Of a stretch of DNA of 64,000 bases, positions 36,704 to 56,586 are shown piece after piece. Made by a program: the position numbers and the translations under genes. The notes under the pieces were generated by a model that saw nothing but the letters and a program-made list of their open reading frames with translations, ran no database searches and was not told the origin of the DNA. Position 1 is the first letter of the stretch, and every line of letters starts with the position of its first letter. The stretch comes from an uncultured bacterium. Lineage in GTDB: Bacteria > Patescibacteriota > Minisyncoccia > Phycocordibacterales > CAIZLB01. The DNA lies in NCBI GenBank assembly GCA_903936565.1, contig CAIZVZ010000001.1, forward strand, positions 159,905 to 223,904, in the 5' to 3' direction.

Positions 36704-37975
36704 TCATAAAAACAAAAGATTCTTATCCAAATCTTCAGAATCGGTTCCGCCCTTATCAGCCTTGTGATCAATCGCGCTCTTGGTTGATCCAAGGTAAATA
36801 ACAATTTTACCAAACTTCTCTTCCAATGTATCGATTTGTTTATGTATTATTTCAAACTTAGATGCCCGAGTATTACTTCCAAACAAATCGTCCTGTGGAA
36901 CAAAGTCCGTCATCAAGTCTAGTAGCGTCACACCAGTTGTTCTATACAACACTCCCCTTTTATGAATATTTTCAAACTGAACATGAGCTAGCGAAAGCAA
37001 AATCTCTGGCGAGTTTGATGGTGAAGGTAATAAAATTAAAGCCGTTACAAATTCAAAATCCTTGGTTTTGAGAAAGATGGAGAACTTTTTTGGAACCAAA
37101 TTGAAATGCCTTGCCTTTCTGCAAGAGTCCTCAATATGCTTTGAAAGCTGTGACCATAAAAAAGTTTTATCATTTGTCGACGGGTGAAATGAACGAGTTT
37201 TCTGAATTGATGAATAGACAGTCTTCGATGCAGAGTCTATCTCCATAATAGAAACACCGTGAAGTTCCTGCCAGATTGTCTCGTAAGGTTTTGACAGAAT
37301 GAGCTTAATCCACGCAATATCTTTATCGTAAAAATCTTTTGCTGTCGTTATACCTTTCCTATTCAATTGCTCTGCTGTTCTTGGACCTATACCCCAGATT
37401 TTTTTTATGGGAACTTTTTGCAAAAAATCTGCAGCTGTTTTGTTTTCAATCACAGTTAAACCATTTGGCTTGACCCAATTCGATGCCACCTTTGCCAAAA
37501 CTTTTGTTGAAGCAAGACCAATTGAAACAGAAAGATTTAATTCTTCATTAACCTCCCTTTTAATTCTCTCCGCAATTTGCAGGTAAGACATACCGAGTGG
37601 TTTATCGAGACCAGTTAATTCACCAAAACACTCATCAATACTATACTCCTCCACATCATCAACGTATCTCCTAACTATATCAAACATTTTTGTAGAATAT
37701 TCCACGTATGCTCGATAATCTCCCGGAAGGATTACTACCATAGGAAATTCTCGCTTTACCCTAAATATCGGCATACCTCTAATTATCCCAAGTGCCTTAG
37801 CTTCATATGAAAGCGCAGAGACAATTCCACGTTCCTGCCCGGTAACAACAGGTAGCCCGCGAAGCTTTGGATTCTTTGCAATCTCCACACCAACAAAAAA
37901 CGCATCTCCATCTATATGAAGGATGACCTTTTCTCTTTTGACGATGGTACTAGTGTTGGATTCAGATGGACTCAC
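36704..37975 (-). CDS. dinB: Y-family DNA polymerase (DinB/Pol IV-like)
   Basis: ILHIDGDAFFVGVE matches the DxDxFFxxVE catalytic motif, and the palm/fingers layout is that of UmuC/DinB. Confidence 0.7.
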   Translation of the reverse strand: MSPSESNTSTIVKREKVILHIDGDAFFVGVEIAKNPKLRGLPVVTGQERGIVSALSYEAKALGIIRGMPIFRVKREFPMVVILPGDYRAYVEYSTKMFDIVRRYVDDVEEYSIDECFGELTGLDKPLGMSYLQIAERIKREVNEELNLSVSIGLASTKVLAKVASNWVKPNGLTVIENKTAADFLQKVPIKKIWGIGPRTAEQLNRKGITTAKDFYDKDIAWIKLILSKPYETIWQELHGVSIMEIDSASKTVYSSIQKTRSFHPSTNDKTFLWSQLSKHIEDSCRKARHFNLVPKKFSIFLKTKDFEFVTALILLPSPSNSPEILLSLAHVQFENIHKRGVLYRTTGVTLLDLMTDFVPQDDLFGSNTRASKFEIIHKQIDTLEEKFGKIVIYLGSTKSAIDHKADKGGTDSEDLDKNLLFL

Positions 37976-38100: not shown

Positions 38101-38871
38101 CTATGCGGCGGCAGTTGGCAGATAGACCGAGCGCATGGCTCTATATTCTGAATCGGCGAATCTGACCTCCTGATCCTCCGTTGTTTTGGAGTATCCGAGG
38201 CTCTTGGTTGGAACGATGTTCGGATCCCGAACCGCTACGACACGATAGAAGTCGTAGAGAGTTTCGTTTCGATTAAACGTCCCGCCGACACGGCGTTTTT
38301 TGGGCCCACTCCTGACGACGGGGCAGTCAATCATCCAAAAATACCGATCCCCCTCGTTACACCCGACACCTGCAATCGGGAACTTGGTCTGCAGATTGGG
38401 TTTCTGAGCGCTGAGAGCCAGGATTTCTTCGACCAAAACTGGCCGATATCCATATGCTGTCAGCTCTGCAAGAACCTCTTTGTGAGACATCTGACGACCC
38501 TTACCGAAGTGAAAGATGGTCAGGTTCACGTCCTCTTCATGGGCGCCCGTGAATGAGCGATCAGGGATGGACTCGGCAGGTTGTGTTTCGCAACCAGTCA
38601 AAGCCGCAGACTGCCGCAGGGTGAGCTGGCGATTCAGCCTTACCGTCACACTGAAGTGAGTAGGTTCGGGCCATTTTTCCAATCCGAGCGCTGGTCTGAC
38701 ATCACCCCGCACAAGATACCCGCGCCTGCGGATACTCTCGACGAGATCCGTCAGGATTCCAGACTCTAGGATTTGCTGCCATTCTCCCCGGGTAACACCC
38801 AGTGGGGCGAGCACATTTTGGTAGAGATGCTCGAGTTGTTCTTCTGTCAGTTGATTATTATTCGTTTTCAT
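38101..38871 (-). CDS. Hypothetical protein (GC-rich)
   Basis: 256-aa ORF whose composition differs clearly from the flanking genes. No recognisable domain. Confidence 0.35.
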   Translation of the reverse strand: MKTNNNQLTEEQLEHLYQNVLAPLGVTRGEWQQILESGILTDLVESIRRRGYLVRGDVRPALGLEKWPEPTHFSVTVRLNRQLTLRQSAALTGCETQPAESIPDRSFTGAHEEDVNLTIFHFGKGRQMSHKEVLAELTAYGYRPVLVEEILALSAQKPNLQTKFPIAGVGCNEGDRYFWMIDCPVVRSGPKKRRVGGTFNRNETLYDFYRVVAVRDPNIVPTKSLGYSKTTEDQEVRFADSEYRAMRSVYLPTAAA

Positions 38872-39258: not shown

Positions 39259-39669
39259 TTAGGCTTCGCACTTCTTACAGACGCCAAAAAACTCAACAGA
39301 ATGACTTTCTATGAAATTAAATTTCTTTGATTGAGAGAGTGCATCCTTATCTAGTAATTTATTACAGATACTTATCTCCTCTATGACCCCACAATCCTTA
39401 CATATCAGATGATGGTGATGATGCTCTGCTAGCTCATAGTGGGCAGAATCAGTGTGTACATTTACGAATCTCAATATACCCTTTTCCTCAAAGGTTGACA
39501 GTGTCCTATATATTGTTACTAAGTTAATATTCTGACCTTGCAGTTTTTGGAAAATATATTCAGCGTTTATTGGTCTGCAGTCACTTGAAAAAACCTCTAG
39601 AATCGCCAAGCGATTTGGCGTTACCTTTAGACCCACACTCATGAGTTTTGCTGATGTATCTTTCTTCAT
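39259..39669 (-). CDS. Fur-family metalloregulator (likely Zur-type)
   Basis: DNA-binding helix NRLAILEVF, HHHHH ... CKDC ... C-x2-C metal sites, and a length of 136 aa. It is divergent from a COG0523 gene. Confidence 0.8.
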   Translation of the reverse strand: MKKDTSAKLMSVGLKVTPNRLAILEVFSSDCRPINAEYIFQKLQGQNINLVTIYRTLSTFEEKGILRFVNVHTDSAHYELAEHHHHHLICKDCGVIEEISICNKLLDKDALSQSKKFNFIESHSVEFFGVCKKCEA

Positions 39670-39678
39670 AATGGTCTC

Positions 39679-39755
39679 ATTATATCCTAAATGTTAATGA
39701 TTTGCAATTAGCGCTCTATTAGGATATATTACTATTCAGGTGCAAAACATTTGCA
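39679..39755. promoter_or_regulatory. Back-to-back divergent promoters sharing one palindromic -35 (TTGCAA at 39702-39707), plus a palindromic operator candidate TGCAAAacaTTTGCA (39741-39755)
   Basis: Plus strand: TTGCAA-17-TATATT (39725-39730) drives the COG0523 gene. Minus strand: TTGCAA-17-TATAAT (revcomp of 39679-39684), 10 nt before the Fur ATG. The 6-3-6 inverted repeat lies just downstream of the plus-strand -10. Confidence 0.45.
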
Positions 39756-39809
39756 TCTGAAGATAGATCTTTAAATCAACAACAACAACCCCAGAGAACC
39801 GTAAGTAAA

Positions 39810-41459
39810 ATGAATACAACCATGCAACTATTCGCCGCTGTTGGCCCACTTGGAGCCGGCAAGACGACGTTTGTCCTGAACGTGATTCAGGCGTTAGAAT
39901 CCAGCGGATTTCCAACTAGAGAGAAAGTCGCCTTTGTCGTCAACGACGAAGGTCACATGCTCGATGGTGAGCTCGCAGGTAATTTGGCAAAAGTGGTCGC
40001 CATGACCAATGGATGCTTCACATGCAGCGACACCGCGGGACTCAAGACTACCCTAGCGAAACTTGAGCAATCAGGCATCACTTGGGCATTTTTGGAAGGC
40101 TTCGGCATCACTGCAGGAAATGAAACAAAACAATTCCTCGAATCGTGTCCGTACCCATTCCATATCCTCTGTCTTTTTTCGGCAAGGCATCACACCCTCG
40201 ACCTCATCAGGTATGCGGGCGTAGTGAAAAGCCAAGTGAGAGCCGCAACCCTGGCGGTTGGCGTCACCAAGTTCGAGGGTGGCAACATCCTAAGCCTTGA
40301 TGATTCAGGTATTCCGGAATTCGTAGCAGAAGAAAAACCCGGGATACCGCTCGTCCTTATTCCAAACACTCCCAACATTCCAGATGTCATCCTAGACATT
40401 TTCACAAAAGATGACAAAGGGGCGATGAGGAGACTTGCATCAACGTCAAATAGTGTGATTTTCCGAGATTTTAGACGCAGGCACCACACAAGCTGCGATT
40501 GTTGCGGACATGACCACAACGACCACTCGCACGATCATTATGTTCACGGTATGCACCCGTACTCCTATGAACTCATAGATGGAGCAACTCTCGAAGATCT
40601 CCGTAGGGCGTTCGACGGGAAGGAATTCCTACTCAGAGTAAAGGGTGCGGTTGGCGGACATCTCTTCAATGCGGTGCACGACGAATGGCAAGAAACGATT
40701 AAGGATCAAAGAAGGTTCGTTACGTTCTACACTTCGAGAGAGGTGAATATCGAAAGCGACCTTCCAGGCCTGACAGAGATTGTTGTCACCCAAGAAGTAC
40801 CTGCTGGGATGGAACCGGGATACAAGCTTATCCGCATGGAGACAGCAAGCCGCGATGAGACTATCCGGGAAATCAATGACCTCCTTGATGGGTCACCTAC
40901 CGAGCCTGTTGTGATTAGTTCTGAAGCTGGACTCCGCCTCATCACTCATCCAGAAAAATTCCAGATCGCCAAGGAAATCTCCCGGAGACCGTACGTTATT
41001 GACGAATGGTTCCCCCGTGTTCTGAAGCGCTTCATGAAATACTGGATTCGATGTGCGGAAATAGTAAAAGATCGTGCAAGCGAAATCGTCCCCGATGACA
41101 TCGCAAAAAACAGACACGAGCTAGCTGTGTCGATGGTCTGGTGGGTTAATCGCCACGGCGAATTCTTCGGAGCCGAAATTGTACAAGCGGTTGAAAGACT
41201 GCATCCAGGAGAAATGGCTGCCCAGGGAATCCTTTCCCTCCAAAGTCTAATCTCGATCACGCATCCAGAAACGGTTTCGTGGCAGTGCCTGGAATTCACT
41301 GAGGCTTTAAGCTATGGCTTAACACACGGCGACAATTCAGAGAGTATGCTCAAGGCAGCTCGTCACTGCCTATCCCTTGCTACAACGCCCGATCTGATTA
41401 AAGCCTGGTCGGAAAGTGTCGGAATTCTTGAGGAAAAATCCCGCGCAATTATTGCGTGA
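39810..41459 (+). CDS. COG0523/CobW-family G3E GTPase (putative zinc metallochaperone) with a His-rich insert and a ~250-aa C-terminal extension of unknown function
   Basis: Walker A GPLGAGKTT, VVNDEG, a variant metal-binding motif NGCFTCS (canonical GCxCC) and the His-rich stretch HDHNDHSHDHYVHGMH. At 549 aa it is much longer than typical (320-400 aa). Confidence 0.65.
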   Translation: MNTTMQLFAAVGPLGAGKTTFVLNVIQALESSGFPTREKVAFVVNDEGHMLDGELAGNLAKVVAMTNGCFTCSDTAGLKTTLAKLEQSGITWAFLEGFGITAGNETKQFLESCPYPFHILCLFSARHHTLDLIRYAGVVKSQVRAATLAVGVTKFEGGNILSLDDSGIPEFVAEEKPGIPLVLIPNTPNIPDVILDIFTKDDKGAMRRLASTSNSVIFRDFRRRHHTSCDCCGHDHNDHSHDHYVHGMHPYSYELIDGATLEDLRRAFDGKEFLLRVKGAVGGHLFNAVHDEWQETIKDQRRFVTFYTSREVNIESDLPGLTEIVVTQEVPAGMEPGYKLIRMETASRDETIREINDLLDGSPTEPVVISSEAGLRLITHPEKFQIAKEISRRPYVIDEWFPRVLKRFMKYWIRCAEIVKDRASEIVPDDIAKNRHELAVSMVWWVNRHGEFFGAEIVQAVERLHPGEMAAQGILSLQSLISITHPETVSWQCLEFTEALSYGLTHGDNSESMLKAARHCLSLATTPDLIKAWSESVGILEEKSRAIIA

Positions 41460-41466
41460 AAACCCG

Positions 41467-41517
41467 CCGCGACGCTTCAAATAGCCCACGGGTGAAATGG
41501 GCGTCGCGGCTTTTTAT
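41467..41517 (+). terminator. Stem-loop followed by a T-run between the COG0523 and NAS-like genes (terminator or attenuator)
   Basis: 9-bp stem ccgcgacgc/gcgtcgcgg with a long structured loop, followed by ctttttata. Confidence 0.4.
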
Positions 41518-41524
41518 ACAACAG

Positions 41525-42340
41525 ATGATAAACATAATTTTACAAAGAAAAAAAGACGAAATCCTCAACATTTATGAGGAGCTTTTGTCTGCAAAGAATT
41601 TGAAGCCATCTAAAAATATTAACGCCACATTTTCCGAGCTTGTGGCGATAGTACAAGATACACCCATTGAGCATTCAAGAGACATTTTGGATAACATTGA
41701 GATTCGAAAGATTCAAGACGATCTCCGGAGGATGTCATCAAGAGCAGAATCAGAGCTTGAGCTATTTTGGGTTAAGAATGTCCTCAAATCCCAGAACGCA
41801 GAAAAAATACTTAAGTTTTTTCCATATTACTCGAACTATGAGAAGATGTCCGATCTGGAAATCAAGAGTATGCAACTCTGTGATGTTCATAAGGGTCACA
41901 AGGCTTTGTTCGTAGGCTCTGGACCATTACCACTTTCTTCTATTATGATGGCTCGCAAGTGTGGAATATCAATCGATAATTTAGACATGGATGACGAGTC
42001 CTGCAAGTTATCAAAAGAACTTATTAAAAAGATTGGTCTTTCAAACAAAATAAAGACCATCAAAGGGAATATTCTTGACATACAAGATCTCTCTAATTAC
42101 CAAACAATCTTCATTGCTGCACTTGCAGGAGAAAATGATGAAGAGAAGGTAAAAATAATCGACCACATTGTCGCAAGGAGCAAAACAGATACCCACATCG
42201 TTATGCGTAGCGTAAGTGGTCTCGGTGTACTACTCTATCCCGAGATATCATCGACGCATCTGAAGAACATCAAGGTCATTCGCAGAAGTAAAAGCCCTCG
42301 CGATATTATTAACAACATAATCATAGGAAAAATAAAATAA
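41525..42340 (+). CDS. Nicotianamine synthase-like protein (NAS/CntL family; SAM-dependent aminobutyryl transferase)
   Basis: ALFVGSGPLPLSSIMMA and TIFIAALAGENDEEKVKIIDHI match the conserved NAS motifs (VGSGPLPL; FLAALVGM..EEK.K). The likely start is ATG 41525 (MINIILQ), although the track ORF begins at 41456. Confidence 0.65.
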   Translation: MINIILQRKKDEILNIYEELLSAKNLKPSKNINATFSELVAIVQDTPIEHSRDILDNIEIRKIQDDLRRMSSRAESELELFWVKNVLKSQNAEKILKFFPYYSNYEKMSDLEIKSMQLCDVHKGHKALFVGSGPLPLSSIMMARKCGISIDNLDMDDESCKLSKELIKKIGLSNKIKTIKGNILDIQDLSNYQTIFIAALAGENDEEKVKIIDHIVARSKTDTHIVMRSVSGLGVLLYPEISSTHLKNIKVIRRSKSPRDIINNIIIGKIK

Positions 42341-42341
42341 C

Positions 42342-42800
42342 ATGAATCATTATCAATTATCACAAACAAAAGAAAAGCTGGATTTATTACTGCATCAGTA
42401 TGCCGAATATAATAAAGCTACGACAGAGGAAGAAAGAAGTCGTATTGGAGACAGTATGATGTATGACGATCCTGTCGTCTGGATGATGTACAAGCATAAA
42501 GCATATTTGGGTGGCAAACACGAAATCACGACTGTGGGCAAACTCCGAGAACACTGCGGTGAGCATGGTGGCATATGTGCCAAGCGATTTAAGTTTCTAT
42601 CAATATACATCATGGCGAAATACAGCAAGAACATTAAAGATCCGAGGGAATTTCCGGATGAAATGCCAATAGAAGACCTGTACGGGAGCGAAATTTTGGA
42701 TACACTTGTAACCGATGAAAACCTAATGCATGACTGGAAACAGTATGAATTTTATCGAATAGACAACAAGGTTGCGAAATGGCAAAATTACCTCAACTAA
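42342..42800 (+). CDS. Hypothetical His/Cys-containing protein, translationally coupled to the NAS-like gene
   Basis: Starts 2 nt after the NAS stop. Contains REHCGEHGGICAKRF. No family recognised. Confidence 0.4.
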   Translation: MNHYQLSQTKEKLDLLLHQYAEYNKATTEEERSRIGDSMMYDDPVVWMMYKHKAYLGGKHEITTVGKLREHCGEHGGICAKRFKFLSIYIMAKYSKNIKDPREFPDEMPIEDLYGSEILDTLVTDENLMHDWKQYEFYRIDNKVAKWQNYLN

Positions 42801-42826: not shown

Positions 42827-43429
42827 CTAGCGGACGGCATTAGGAACACTGACTAAGTGTGTCTTATCATTTAAATATTCTATATGCCACTTTTGCTTTT
42901 CTTGATTGTAAGTAAATTTAGAAACAGAGGCGTTATCAATGACCAAAGTATTATCCATCTTAATCAACAGATCTTCTGTTAATGAATCCTCAAGCATAAT
43001 ATACGAAATCAAACCCTTAAGAAAAATTGCATGGCTAACCACAACCACATGTTTATGAGATAAATTTTCAAGGAATAGCTTTGCTTCTTTAAGACGTTCT
43101 TTAAAGTCTTCAAATGTCTCACTGTGAACATAGGTCAAATCCATAGAGTAGGAACCTTTTCTTTCTTTTAGATATTCAAGTTGAGTTGGTTCTATATCCA
43201 CAGCCCCCCCCCCTATTTTAGTACCCGTTATTTTTGCTCGAAGAACCTTACTTGTAAATATCTTTTCAATTTTAATATCCTTAAAAATCAAAGCCAAAGA
43301 TTCAGATTGTTTAAGACCCACTTCTGTTAGACAATCCTCCATTGCTTTTGTTAAAGGATCTTTGTTTGAATGTGATTCAGCATGCCTAATAAAATAGATA
43401 TTAGTTCTCATGAGTATAATTATATACAA
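42827..43429 (-). CDS. Histidine phosphatase family protein (phosphoglycerate-mutase-like) with an internal G10 homopolymer
   Basis: IYFIRHAESHSN is the RHG motif. The likely start is MRTN at 43408. A run of 10 G on the coding strand (plus C10 at 43204-43213) encodes GGG. Confidence 0.6.
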   Translation of the reverse strand: MYIIILMRTNIYFIRHAESHSNKDPLTKAMEDCLTEVGLKQSESLALIFKDIKIEKIFTSKVLRAKITGTKIGGGAVDIEPTQLEYLKERKGSYSMDLTYVHSETFEDFKERLKEAKLFLENLSHKHVVVVSHAIFLKGLISYIMLEDSLTEDLLIKMDNTLVIDNASVSKFTYNQEKQKWHIEYLNDKTHLVSVPNAVR

Positions 43430-56494: not shown

Positions 56495-56514
56495 AATTAT
56501 ATTTTGTTATAATG

Positions 56515-56586
56515 CTCCGCGGGTAGGATTCGAACCTACGACCAATTCGTTAACAGCGAACTGCTCTACCACTGAGCTACCGCGGA
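56515..56586 (-). tRNA. tRNA-Asn (anticodon GUU)
   Basis: Reverse complement TCCGCGG-TA-GCTC-AGTGGTA-GAGC-A-GTTCG-CTGTTAA-CGAAT-TGGTC-GTAGG-TTCGAAT-CCTAC-CCGCGGA-G folds as a cloverleaf: 7-bp acceptor stem, D arm, anticodon loop CU-GUU-AA, T arm GGTTCGAAT, discriminator G. Confidence 0.85.

Follow-up and report, generated by a model that had tools for sequence, protein, structure and literature searches.

Chelators made by nicotianamine synthase (NAS)-type enzymes are found in plants, fungi, one archaeon and the Cnt systems of pathogens, the latter being encoded by operons that combine cntKLM with transporter genes and account for staphylopine, pseudopaline and yersinopine. To our knowledge, the GTPases of COG0523 represent a major open problem of metal biology, with few clients known, all of them proteins, and the metal economy of the candidate phyla radiation (CPR) and of DPANN archaea, organisms that must live off a host, is essentially unstudied. 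The present analysis concerns a module found in a 64-kb stretch of contig CAIZVZ010000001.1 (this whole stretch being referred to below as the window), in which the gene of a Fur-family regulator is divergent from an operon encoding a long G3E-family GTPase, a NAS and a protein of 152 amino acids (aa) designated U. The module is conserved and is not a chance adjacency. It would correspond, with a probability that we place at about 0.55, to a metal-starvation operon in which U couples a NAS-type chelator to a GTPase resembling G3E metallochaperones. NAS-based metal homeostasis being already known, what is new here is the U protein family together with a divergent GTPase subfamily.

When compared to the Cnt operons, the locus likewise places a NAS-family enzyme in a predicted metal-repressed prokaryotic operon with a Fur-family repressor box in the promoter, but it has no CntM opine dehydrogenase, CntK racemase or CntA-F/CntO/CntI transporters, in place of which the G3E GTPase and U are found. 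The absence of CntM, CntK and a Cnt-type importer from the vicinity had been pointed out in an earlier annotation made from the DNA letters (hereafter the sequence-only reading), and none indeed occurs among the neighbouring open reading frames (ORFs). The window NAS further differs from CntL in scoring 33 bits against the CntL of the PDB versus 134 bits against plant NAS. With MtNAS (PDB 3FPE) and the plant and fungal NAS it shares the fold family, the catalytic Glu and Tyr and the GxGPLP motif for S-adenosylmethionine (SAM), whereas those enzymes are stand-alone and that of the window shares a conserved operon with the GTPase and with U, to which it is sometimes fused in relatives. As for the GTPase, it resembles the Zur-regulated COG0523 members (ZigA, ZagA/YciC, YeiR, YjiA and the eukaryotic ZNG1) in its G3E P-loop fold, in its Cys/His-rich segment and in its location behind a Fur-family operator; it differs from them by a CFTC motif, the absence of a conserved NKxD Asp and of a CobW_C match, and an extra helical domain of ca. 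200 aa. Finally, plant class I NAS carry a C-terminal extension that is autoinhibitory (PMC10248798) and, in two fusion proteins (P0025 and P0095), U similarly forms an extra polypeptide C-terminal to the NAS core. However, U has no sequence similarity with that extension, is a folded domain of 150 aa and also occurs free or fused to GTPases and aminotransferases. In the literature searched, which covered Cnt, MtNAS and plant NAS, no description of a module joining NAS with COG0523, CPR or DPANN was found and no link between a COG0523 GTPase and a chelator synthase surfaced; in a survey of zincophore gene clusters the term COG0523, the one term checked, has 0 occurrences (PMC7438024).

The genes and the hairpin of the module are listed below; related loci are numbered from L001 onward and proteins carry P numbers.

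39259..39669, minus strand: Fur-family gene, 136 aa (PF01475)
39810..41459, plus strand: gene of the long G3E-family P-loop GTPase, 549 aa (partial match to PF02492)
41466..41517, plus strand: GC-rich hairpin and T-run, terminator- or attenuator-like (folding, relatives)
41525..42340, plus strand: NAS family gene, 271 aa from the ATG at 41525 (PF03059)
42342..42800, plus strand: gene of U, 152 aa, a new all-alpha domain family (no Pfam or NCBIfam match)

The four ORFs of the sequence-only reading, with fur divergent from the GTPase gene, are all present, and the motifs that it quoted (VGSGPLPL, FIAALAGENDEEKVK and REHCGEHGGIC) were each found in the sequences. An alternative start of the GTPase at 39822 would give 545 aa. 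The open frame of NAS reaches back to a GTG at 41456, overlapping the GTPase stop (a mechanical ORF of 294 aa), yet the hairpin lies inside the N-terminal extension of this longer ORF and homologs align only from about residue 18-40, so translation most likely begins at the ATG of 41525. This codon had been used previously and is backed by both the homolog alignments and the conserved hairpin. A single base separates the NAS stop (TAA, 42338-42340) from the ATG of U (42342), a gap that agrees with the translational coupling proposed before.

Conservation was approached from both the U and the NAS sides. Searching with the U sequence among 5.8 billion proteins returned 23 clusters, a profile search 51 clusters, and an exhaustive one, run over 1.84 billion representatives, 193 matches at E<=0.001. 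NAS adjoins U in 18/18 of the loci recovered through U, which belong to CPR bacteria and DPANN archaea including Woesearchaeota and Nanohaloarchaea, and a Fur-family gene adjoins the module in most related loci. U is encoded in 13 GTDB genomes corresponding to Saccharibacteria, Paceibacteria, Parcubacteria, Woesearchaeota, Nanohaloarchaea and two metagenome-assembled genomes (MAGs) labelled Gammaproteobacteria; one U carrier with the latter label is a complete chromosome of 810 kb. Identical U proteins occur on metagenome contigs with an unchanged gene order. Among genome-resolved loci, the nearest are those of MAGs labelled Candidatus Paceibacteria and Candidatus Saccharibacteria, with 69-78% aa identity over the four proteins. 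The window is accordingly attributed to a bacterium of the CPR/Patescibacteria, in agreement with the small-genome host that had been suggested.

Two main organisations can be distinguished. In type A (the window and L001-L009), fur is followed on the opposite strand by the long GTPase (ca. 550 aa), NAS and U (152 aa), the gap between NAS and U being always of 1 nt; a gene for a YibE/F membrane protein is often present, located either after U or after fur. In type B (L010 and L012-L016, with an inverted order in Nanohaloarchaea), NAS is followed by a short COG0523 protein of ca. 300 aa and then by a longer U (175-200 aa) having an N-terminal coiled-coil extension, with overlapping stops and starts. 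This short GTPase is canonical and like known COG0523 proteins, with a GCICC motif, a PF02492 match at E=1e-34 and a weak CobW_C match. Both long and short GTPases are present in L012. L013, which has the short GTPase, is located on the 810-kb chromosome OZ246419, and P0058, a homolog of the long GTPase, is encoded on a contig of 876 kb. In the reciprocal test, 80 metagenome NAS loci were retrieved independently of U and profiled with purpose-built hidden Markov models. Among the 13 low- and mid-GC prokaryotic loci having at least 2 kb on both sides, U was found in 10/13, a G3E GTPase in 10/13, Fur in 9/13 and YibE/F in 5/13. At least 31 of the 80 are plant genes (LCGEAEGYLE and AALVGMDKEEK motifs, 30% GC, no partners) and several others are high-GC bacterial NAS on short contigs. 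Since the arrangement recurs in every related locus examined, it lies far beyond chance.

Several observations were made along with these comparisons. The plant NAS genes in metagenomes (L048-L052, L057, L059-L065 and others), which have no ORFs beside them, represent plant DNA in environmental assemblies. In Nanohaloarchaea, two tandem U paralogs stand beside a convergent NAS, with the short COG0523 upstream (L011, 5109-6641; L017, 405-1943; also L058, L066 and L075), and one of the two paralogs bears an insertion and no longer has the second residue of the HC pair. In L042 (1455-3415), a YibE/F gene overlaps the NAS start while neither U nor GTPase is found, and this YibE/F-NAS arrangement may represent a minimal pair of chelator and transporter; on the function of YibE/F, nothing useful was retrieved in the literature searched.

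Regarding the enzyme, the profile search suggested by the sequence-only reading matched PF03059 over nearly the full length (170.8 bits, E=5e-50, model positions 10-270 of 276, cut-off 27.1 bits), and the SAM motif and catalytic residues are retained. BLASTP with plant NAS gave 32% identity, 134 bits and E=3e-42 over the full length, and the PDB comparison 64.7 bits with MtNAS and 33 bits with CntL. Against the CntL model of NCBIfam (NF033601) the score is 42.1 bits for a cut-off of 350, so that the initial label of NAS/CntL-family gene stands for NAS but not for CntL. The catalytic Glu (in SELELFW) and Tyr (in YYSNY) and the SAM motif VGSGPLPL are invariant in 13 members of the clade, the catalytic residues being equivalent to E81/Y107 of MtNAS, where a catalytic role has been proposed for them, and to E77/Y106 of AtNAS1, which are reported as essential (PMC10248798). 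Also invariant in the clade is the counterpart of AtNAS1 E73, and the VGMD position is occupied by a loop of 4 residues. In the sequences aligned, this E-x3-E motif and the loop after AAL are common to plant, fungal and other bacterial NAS and only MtNAS lacks them. Their value as a "plant-like" proof of nicotianamine synthesis is weakened since high-GC bacterial NAS share both, and they argue only against an enzyme of the CntL or MtNAS type. The enzyme would most likely make a nicotianamine-type chelator from the aminobutyrate units of SAM, nicotianamine itself consisting of three such units and having an azetidine ring.

The U protein has no match in Pfam or NCBIfam and is confidently modelled as an all-alpha domain of ca. 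150 aa that matches no known fold; the predicted model displays no nucleotide-binding, Rossmann or other cofactor fold and resembles no known enzyme. Residues M39, P44, W47, Y50, K51, A54, Y55, H71, C79 and R82 are invariant in the family, and W132, E136, K146 and W147 nearly so. The earlier description of a His/Cys-rich ORF was not borne out: U contains 7 His and 2 Cys in 152 aa and, in the REHCGEHGGIC cluster, only H71 and C79 are family-invariant, with C72 and H75 alternating between clades, so that a generic metal cluster rich in His and Cys is not what this segment represents. Fusions are frequent and informative. Among 38 long representatives of the family, 20 are G3E-U, 5 NAS-U, 3 class I/II aminotransferase-U and 2-3 U-methyltransferase proteins, so that U is fused to G3E GTPases four times as often as to NAS. 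In NAS-U fusions (including P0025 and P0095), U is C-terminal to NAS, while the G3E-U fusions P0097 and P0136 sit directly after NAS, with fur upstream of P0097. The aminotransferase-U fusions are located directly after a G3E GTPase of ca. 510 aa, with no NAS nearby. Taken together, the fusion counts and these aminotransferase contexts designate the GTPase as the partner that accompanies U most constantly, the enzyme (in most cases NAS) being variable. The sequence-only reading had placed this small ORF "in the CntM position": it is indeed a conserved partner of NAS, but a CntM-like biosynthetic role fits poorly with an all-alpha domain for which GTPase fusions dominate.

The aminotransferase-U contexts further reveal a second system with a U domain, composed of a G3E GTPase of ca. 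510-520 aa and then the aminotransferase-U fusion (L019, 4472-7755; L023, 3476-6731), in which no NAS occurs within 5-6 kb. The possibility that the methyltransferase and aminotransferase partners are SAM-lyase-like (AzeJ or 1-aminocyclopropane-1-carboxylate synthase-like) was discarded, as they resemble generic HemK/RsmC methyltransferases and ordinary class-I aminotransferases. The tie of U to aminocarboxypropyl chemistry that such partners would have provided was dropped with it.

The long GTPase matches the CobW/HypB/UreG nucleotide-binding domain PF02492 (cobW) at E=1.1e-10 over residues 11-106 only of its 549 and carries the G-domain motifs GPLGAGKTT, NGCFTC, EGFG and TK, with a G3E P-loop fold and a Walker A motif. 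Its AlphaFold2 model (pLDDT, the predicted local distance difference test score, of 84) comprises the G domain, a disordered Cys/His-rich linker (ca. 202-246), a small beta domain (ca. 248-308) and a helical C-terminal domain of ca. 200 aa with conserved THPE, RR, YW and WW motifs. The long-GTPase family to which it belongs includes 37 clusters, is conserved over the whole length and is the only one in which this helical domain was found. In 35/35 aligned members, NGCFTC (C69, T71, C72) is invariant and replaces CxCC, and NKxD is reduced to an invariant T153-K154, the Asp position being variable (E, Q, H or Y). No CobW_C match (PF07683) was obtained in Pfam even at E<=1; the predicted beta domain occurs after the His-rich linker at the spot where CobW_C would be expected, and YjiA aligns over 178 residues only. 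The designation as a COG0523 GTPase is then acceptable as far as the CobW-like/G3E family is concerned but not for bona fide COG0523, and the protein is best described, from these motifs, as a divergent G3E GTPase related to COG0523. Besides it, the window contains no short or canonical COG0523 gene. A relationship of its C-terminal domain to a divergent U was rejected by profile-profile comparison (probability of 0.2%).

The Fur-family assignment of the regulator, made previously, is confirmed by PF01475 (E=3.5e-25, 88.9 bits), by HHHHH and the two CxxC pairs C90/C93 and C131/C134 (structural Cys4 site) and by palindromic boxes in its own promoter. Its qualification as Zur-like is not. In NCBIfam it scores 75 bits for Fur, 74 for PerR and 31 for Zur, with all equivalogs below their cut-off (167 bits for the Zur equivalog NF008646), and its best PDB matches are VcFur (73.6 bits), EcFur (68), MtbZur (65.6) and BsPerR (60.6). 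The site-1 ligands D62 and C76 of Mtb Zur correspond to Arg67 and Leu80, two positions that are not conserved across 25 module-linked Fur proteins. The ligand position of Fur H33 and PerR H37 is occupied by a Pro, and E79 aligns with E81 of Fur and not with a Cys of Zur. Subtyping by ligand residues was abandoned because the regulator fits cleanly neither the Fur/PerR nor the Zur pattern. Two features of relatives offer a hint: in L005 an exact operator box stands upstream of a separate gene of the canonical COG0523 + CobW_C kind, and in L013 the fur-NAS operon and a ZIP transporter gene diverge from an intergenic region that contains a related palindrome. COG0523 and ZIP genes are typical members of Zur regulons, and the metal sensed is probably zinc.

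The divergent fur/GTPase intergenic region spans 140 bp and holds two operator-like boxes, together with two predicted promoters.

39692..39706, no strand: operator-like box 1, TGTTAATGATTTGCA, a degenerate palindrome with two mismatches to TGCAAANNNTTTGCA
39741..39755, no strand: operator-like box 2, TGCAAAACATTTGCA, a perfect palindrome TGCAAA-ACA-TTTGCA (unique exact match)
39702-39730, plus strand: predicted GTPase promoter, sigma-70-like, TTGCAA-17-TATATT (consensus scan, pattern match)
39707-39679, minus strand: predicted fur promoter, sigma-70-like, TTGCAA-17-TATAAT (consensus scan, pattern match)

Box 1 overlaps both the predicted fur promoter and the predicted -35 of the GTPase promoter and is found at the same position in L001, L003, L006, L007 and L008. 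Box 2 is located 11 nt downstream of the predicted GTPase -10. The exact TGCAAA-N3-TTTGCA sequence occurs once in the 64 kb, for ca. 0.007 expected by chance (estimated from base frequencies), and exact copies of box 2 exist at the equivalent intergenic site in L001, L002, L003, L006, L007 and L009 although the surrounding sequence has diverged. Related palindromes (ATGCAAC-N3-GTTGCAT) precede the type-B operons of L013, L014 and L016. When up to two mismatches are allowed, 13 boxes are found in the window versus 6.9 expected from shuffles, which is not an enrichment, and weight is given for this reason only to the exact, positionally conserved boxes.

Between the GTPase gene and NAS, the stem-loop seen in the sequence-only reading was recovered as a GC-rich hairpin (41466-41510, -28 kcal/mol) followed by TTTTTAT. 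Equivalent hairpins with a T-run occur in L001 (7132-7180), L005, L006 (7121-7175), L008 (7131-7180), L009 (3425-3470) and L012 (5992-6024), in which the stems differ in sequence but remain complementary. A whole-window Rfam scan assigned no family to the element (41466-41517), and a known riboswitch was ruled out in this way, the sole match in the window being a tRNA. Its conservation suggests that transcription terminates there in part, which would set the proportion of GTPase relative to NAS and U, and the element may act as an attenuator instead of a simple terminator.

From these elements the following scheme can be proposed. The metal-loaded Fur-family repressor would bind the two TGCAAA-N3-TTTGCA boxes at the divergent fur and GTPase promoters, and scarcity of the metal, probably zinc, would derepress the operon. 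A first product would be the divergent G3E metallochaperone-type GTPase with its Cys/His-rich linker; read-through of the hairpin/T-run attenuator would then give the NAS, expected to assemble aminobutyrate moieties of SAM into a nicotianamine-type polyamino-carboxylate chelator, and U would be made by translational coupling to NAS. U may physically link the GTPase with NAS or with the chelator produced. It would then either exchange metal between the GTPase and the metal-loaded chelator or gate NAS in response to the metal status, through a binding site made of the invariant His, Cys, Lys, Arg, Tyr and Trp residues. In the many relatives that have it, YibE/F would be part of this regulon and could transport the chelator, free or complexed with metal, through the membrane. 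A more specific version, in which U is a new adaptor allowing a G3E GTPase to exchange metal with nicotianamine in a chelator-to-chaperone relay of CPR and DPANN organisms, is attractive but rather doubtful at this stage; if true, nicotianamine would act as an intracellular metal buffer in prokaryotes and COG0523-type GTPases would have a metabolite-linked client.

A number of points weigh against the general scheme of a metal-starvation operon. The single His and single Cys that are invariant in U would not by themselves suffice for tetrahedral coordination of a metal, and neither the family alignment nor the model provides a structural or sequence clue to a ligand. On sequence grounds the metal specificity of the regulator cannot be assigned, its scores being nearer to Fur/PerR than to Zur. 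The GTPase, having neither CxCC nor the NKxD Asp, may differ in behaviour from characterised COG0523 proteins, and the product of NAS could be other than nicotianamine. No chelator transporter is encoded in the window, which contains neither a YibE/F nor a ZIP gene. Finally, the exceptions of the reciprocal test, L034, L042 and L054, are NAS loci of the same clade but lack both U and a G3E GTPase, and L047 has the long GTPase and NAS with no U within 5 kb. The absence of U from these four loci indicates that it is not needed for NAS catalysis as such.

Other roles can be envisaged for U. It might be an enzyme that modifies the NAS product, replacing CntM or nicotianamine aminotransferase (NAAT) and generating a new metallophore that would be secreted and re-imported, for instance via YibE/F. 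Several features would suit such an enzyme: U follows NAS at a distance of 1 nt in every type-A locus; the two are fused in P0025 and P0095; the invariant H, C, K, R, Y and E residues are reminiscent of a catalytic or substrate-binding set; and YibE/F, frequent in the same operon, even overlaps the NAS start in L042. It is nevertheless unlikely, given the fourfold excess of G3E-U over NAS-U fusions, the occurrence of U with a G3E GTPase and an aminotransferase without NAS, an all-alpha domain of ca. 150 aa that has no cofactor fold and is unlike known enzymes, and the existence of several NAS loci without U. As for the compact and possibly novel metallophore system inferred earlier from the DNA, a conserved NAS module with a new partner is indeed present, but secretion is not supported as no exporter or importer occurs in the window. 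Relatives frequently add YibE/F, and the chelator may either be secreted, as a true metallophore, or serve inside the cell. U could otherwise be a metal-sensing domain that, once metal-loaded, shuts off NAS or another partner enzyme and is itself loaded or unloaded by the G3E GTPase. Its C-terminal location in the NAS fusions recalls the autoinhibitory extension of the plant enzymes (PMC10248798), the invariant His/Cys pair is accompanied by a nearby variable third ligand (C72 or H75), and pairing with enzymes as different as NAS, aminotransferase and methyltransferase is what would be expected of a regulatory module. Yet U is related to the plant extension neither in sequence nor in fold, metal binding by U would have to be assumed, and the idea overlaps the coupling described above, in which gating of NAS is already allowed; as a separate explanation it appears quite improbable.

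The identity of the metal raises another alternative, namely that the module answers to iron, or to nickel/cobalt or peroxide, with a regulator that would be a true Fur, Nur or PerR and a chelator intended for Fe or Ni. In favour of it, the profile and PDB scores of the regulator rank Fur and PerR above Zur, E79 pairs with E81 of Fur instead of a Zur Cys, and the structural neighbours of the G domain are headed by the nickel chaperones UreG and HypB. Nicotianamine is also a good binder of both Fe and Ni. On the other hand, the regulator lacks the His ligand found in the N-terminal domain of Fur (H33) and PerR (H37), the operator is found ahead of a canonical COG0523 gene in L005, and in L013 the operon has a divergent ZIP gene as its neighbour. 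A metal other than zinc is thus a possibility to be kept in mind, if not the one that we would expect.

Whatever the metal, gene order, common regulation and recurrent fusion via a domain of novel fold all join a NAS to a G3E GTPase, and do so specifically in CPR and DPANN organisms. Should this link prove functional, a G3E GTPase would gain a client or partner that can be tested, a new family of proteins would become available for characterisation, and the uptake or rationing of zinc or iron by episymbionts would have a candidate route. A metal regulon of Patescibacteria could moreover be defined starting from the conserved operator.

The compositional mosaic reported by the sequence-only reading was also retrieved, with 49.9% GC for the GTPase gene (52% at third codon positions, GC3), 37% for NAS and 39% for U in a window at 37.3%. 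The GC3 of the long GTPase gene exceeds that of its operon partners (52 vs 41-43 in the window), and the gene is GC-richer than its partners, at third positions too, in L001, L006 and L009 as well, but not in L003 and L005; the bias is specific to this gene and persists across lineages. Directly downstream of fur, a 256-aa ORF (38101-38871, minus strand) reaches 53% GC and a GC3 of 57% in a genome of 37% GC, and together with the GTPase gene it forms a GC-rich patch flanking the AT-rich fur. Neither Pfam nor NCBIfam gave a match for this ORF, and none of the related loci contains a homolog of it, for which reason it was ruled out as a member of the module, and it may be a recently acquired gene.

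Neighbouring ORFs encode a histidine phosphatase, a HAD-like protein, a GDSL lipase, a Y-family polymerase and products without assignment. The Y-family (DinB/IMS) DNA polymerase gene is located upstream of the module (36704-37975, minus strand), and the single RNA gene detected by the Rfam scan of the window is a tRNA-Asn(GTT) (56514-56586, minus strand). The histidine-phosphatase gene (42827-43429, minus strand) is one ORF of 200 aa in the window and is split into two calls (124 + 79 or 72 aa) on contigs that have an identical U, which may reflect a frameshift or a strain variant. Finally, in L003 (15258-16462), a SMODS cyclase and a SAVED effector of the cyclic oligonucleotide-based antiphage signalling (CBASS) type were detected a few kb from the module.

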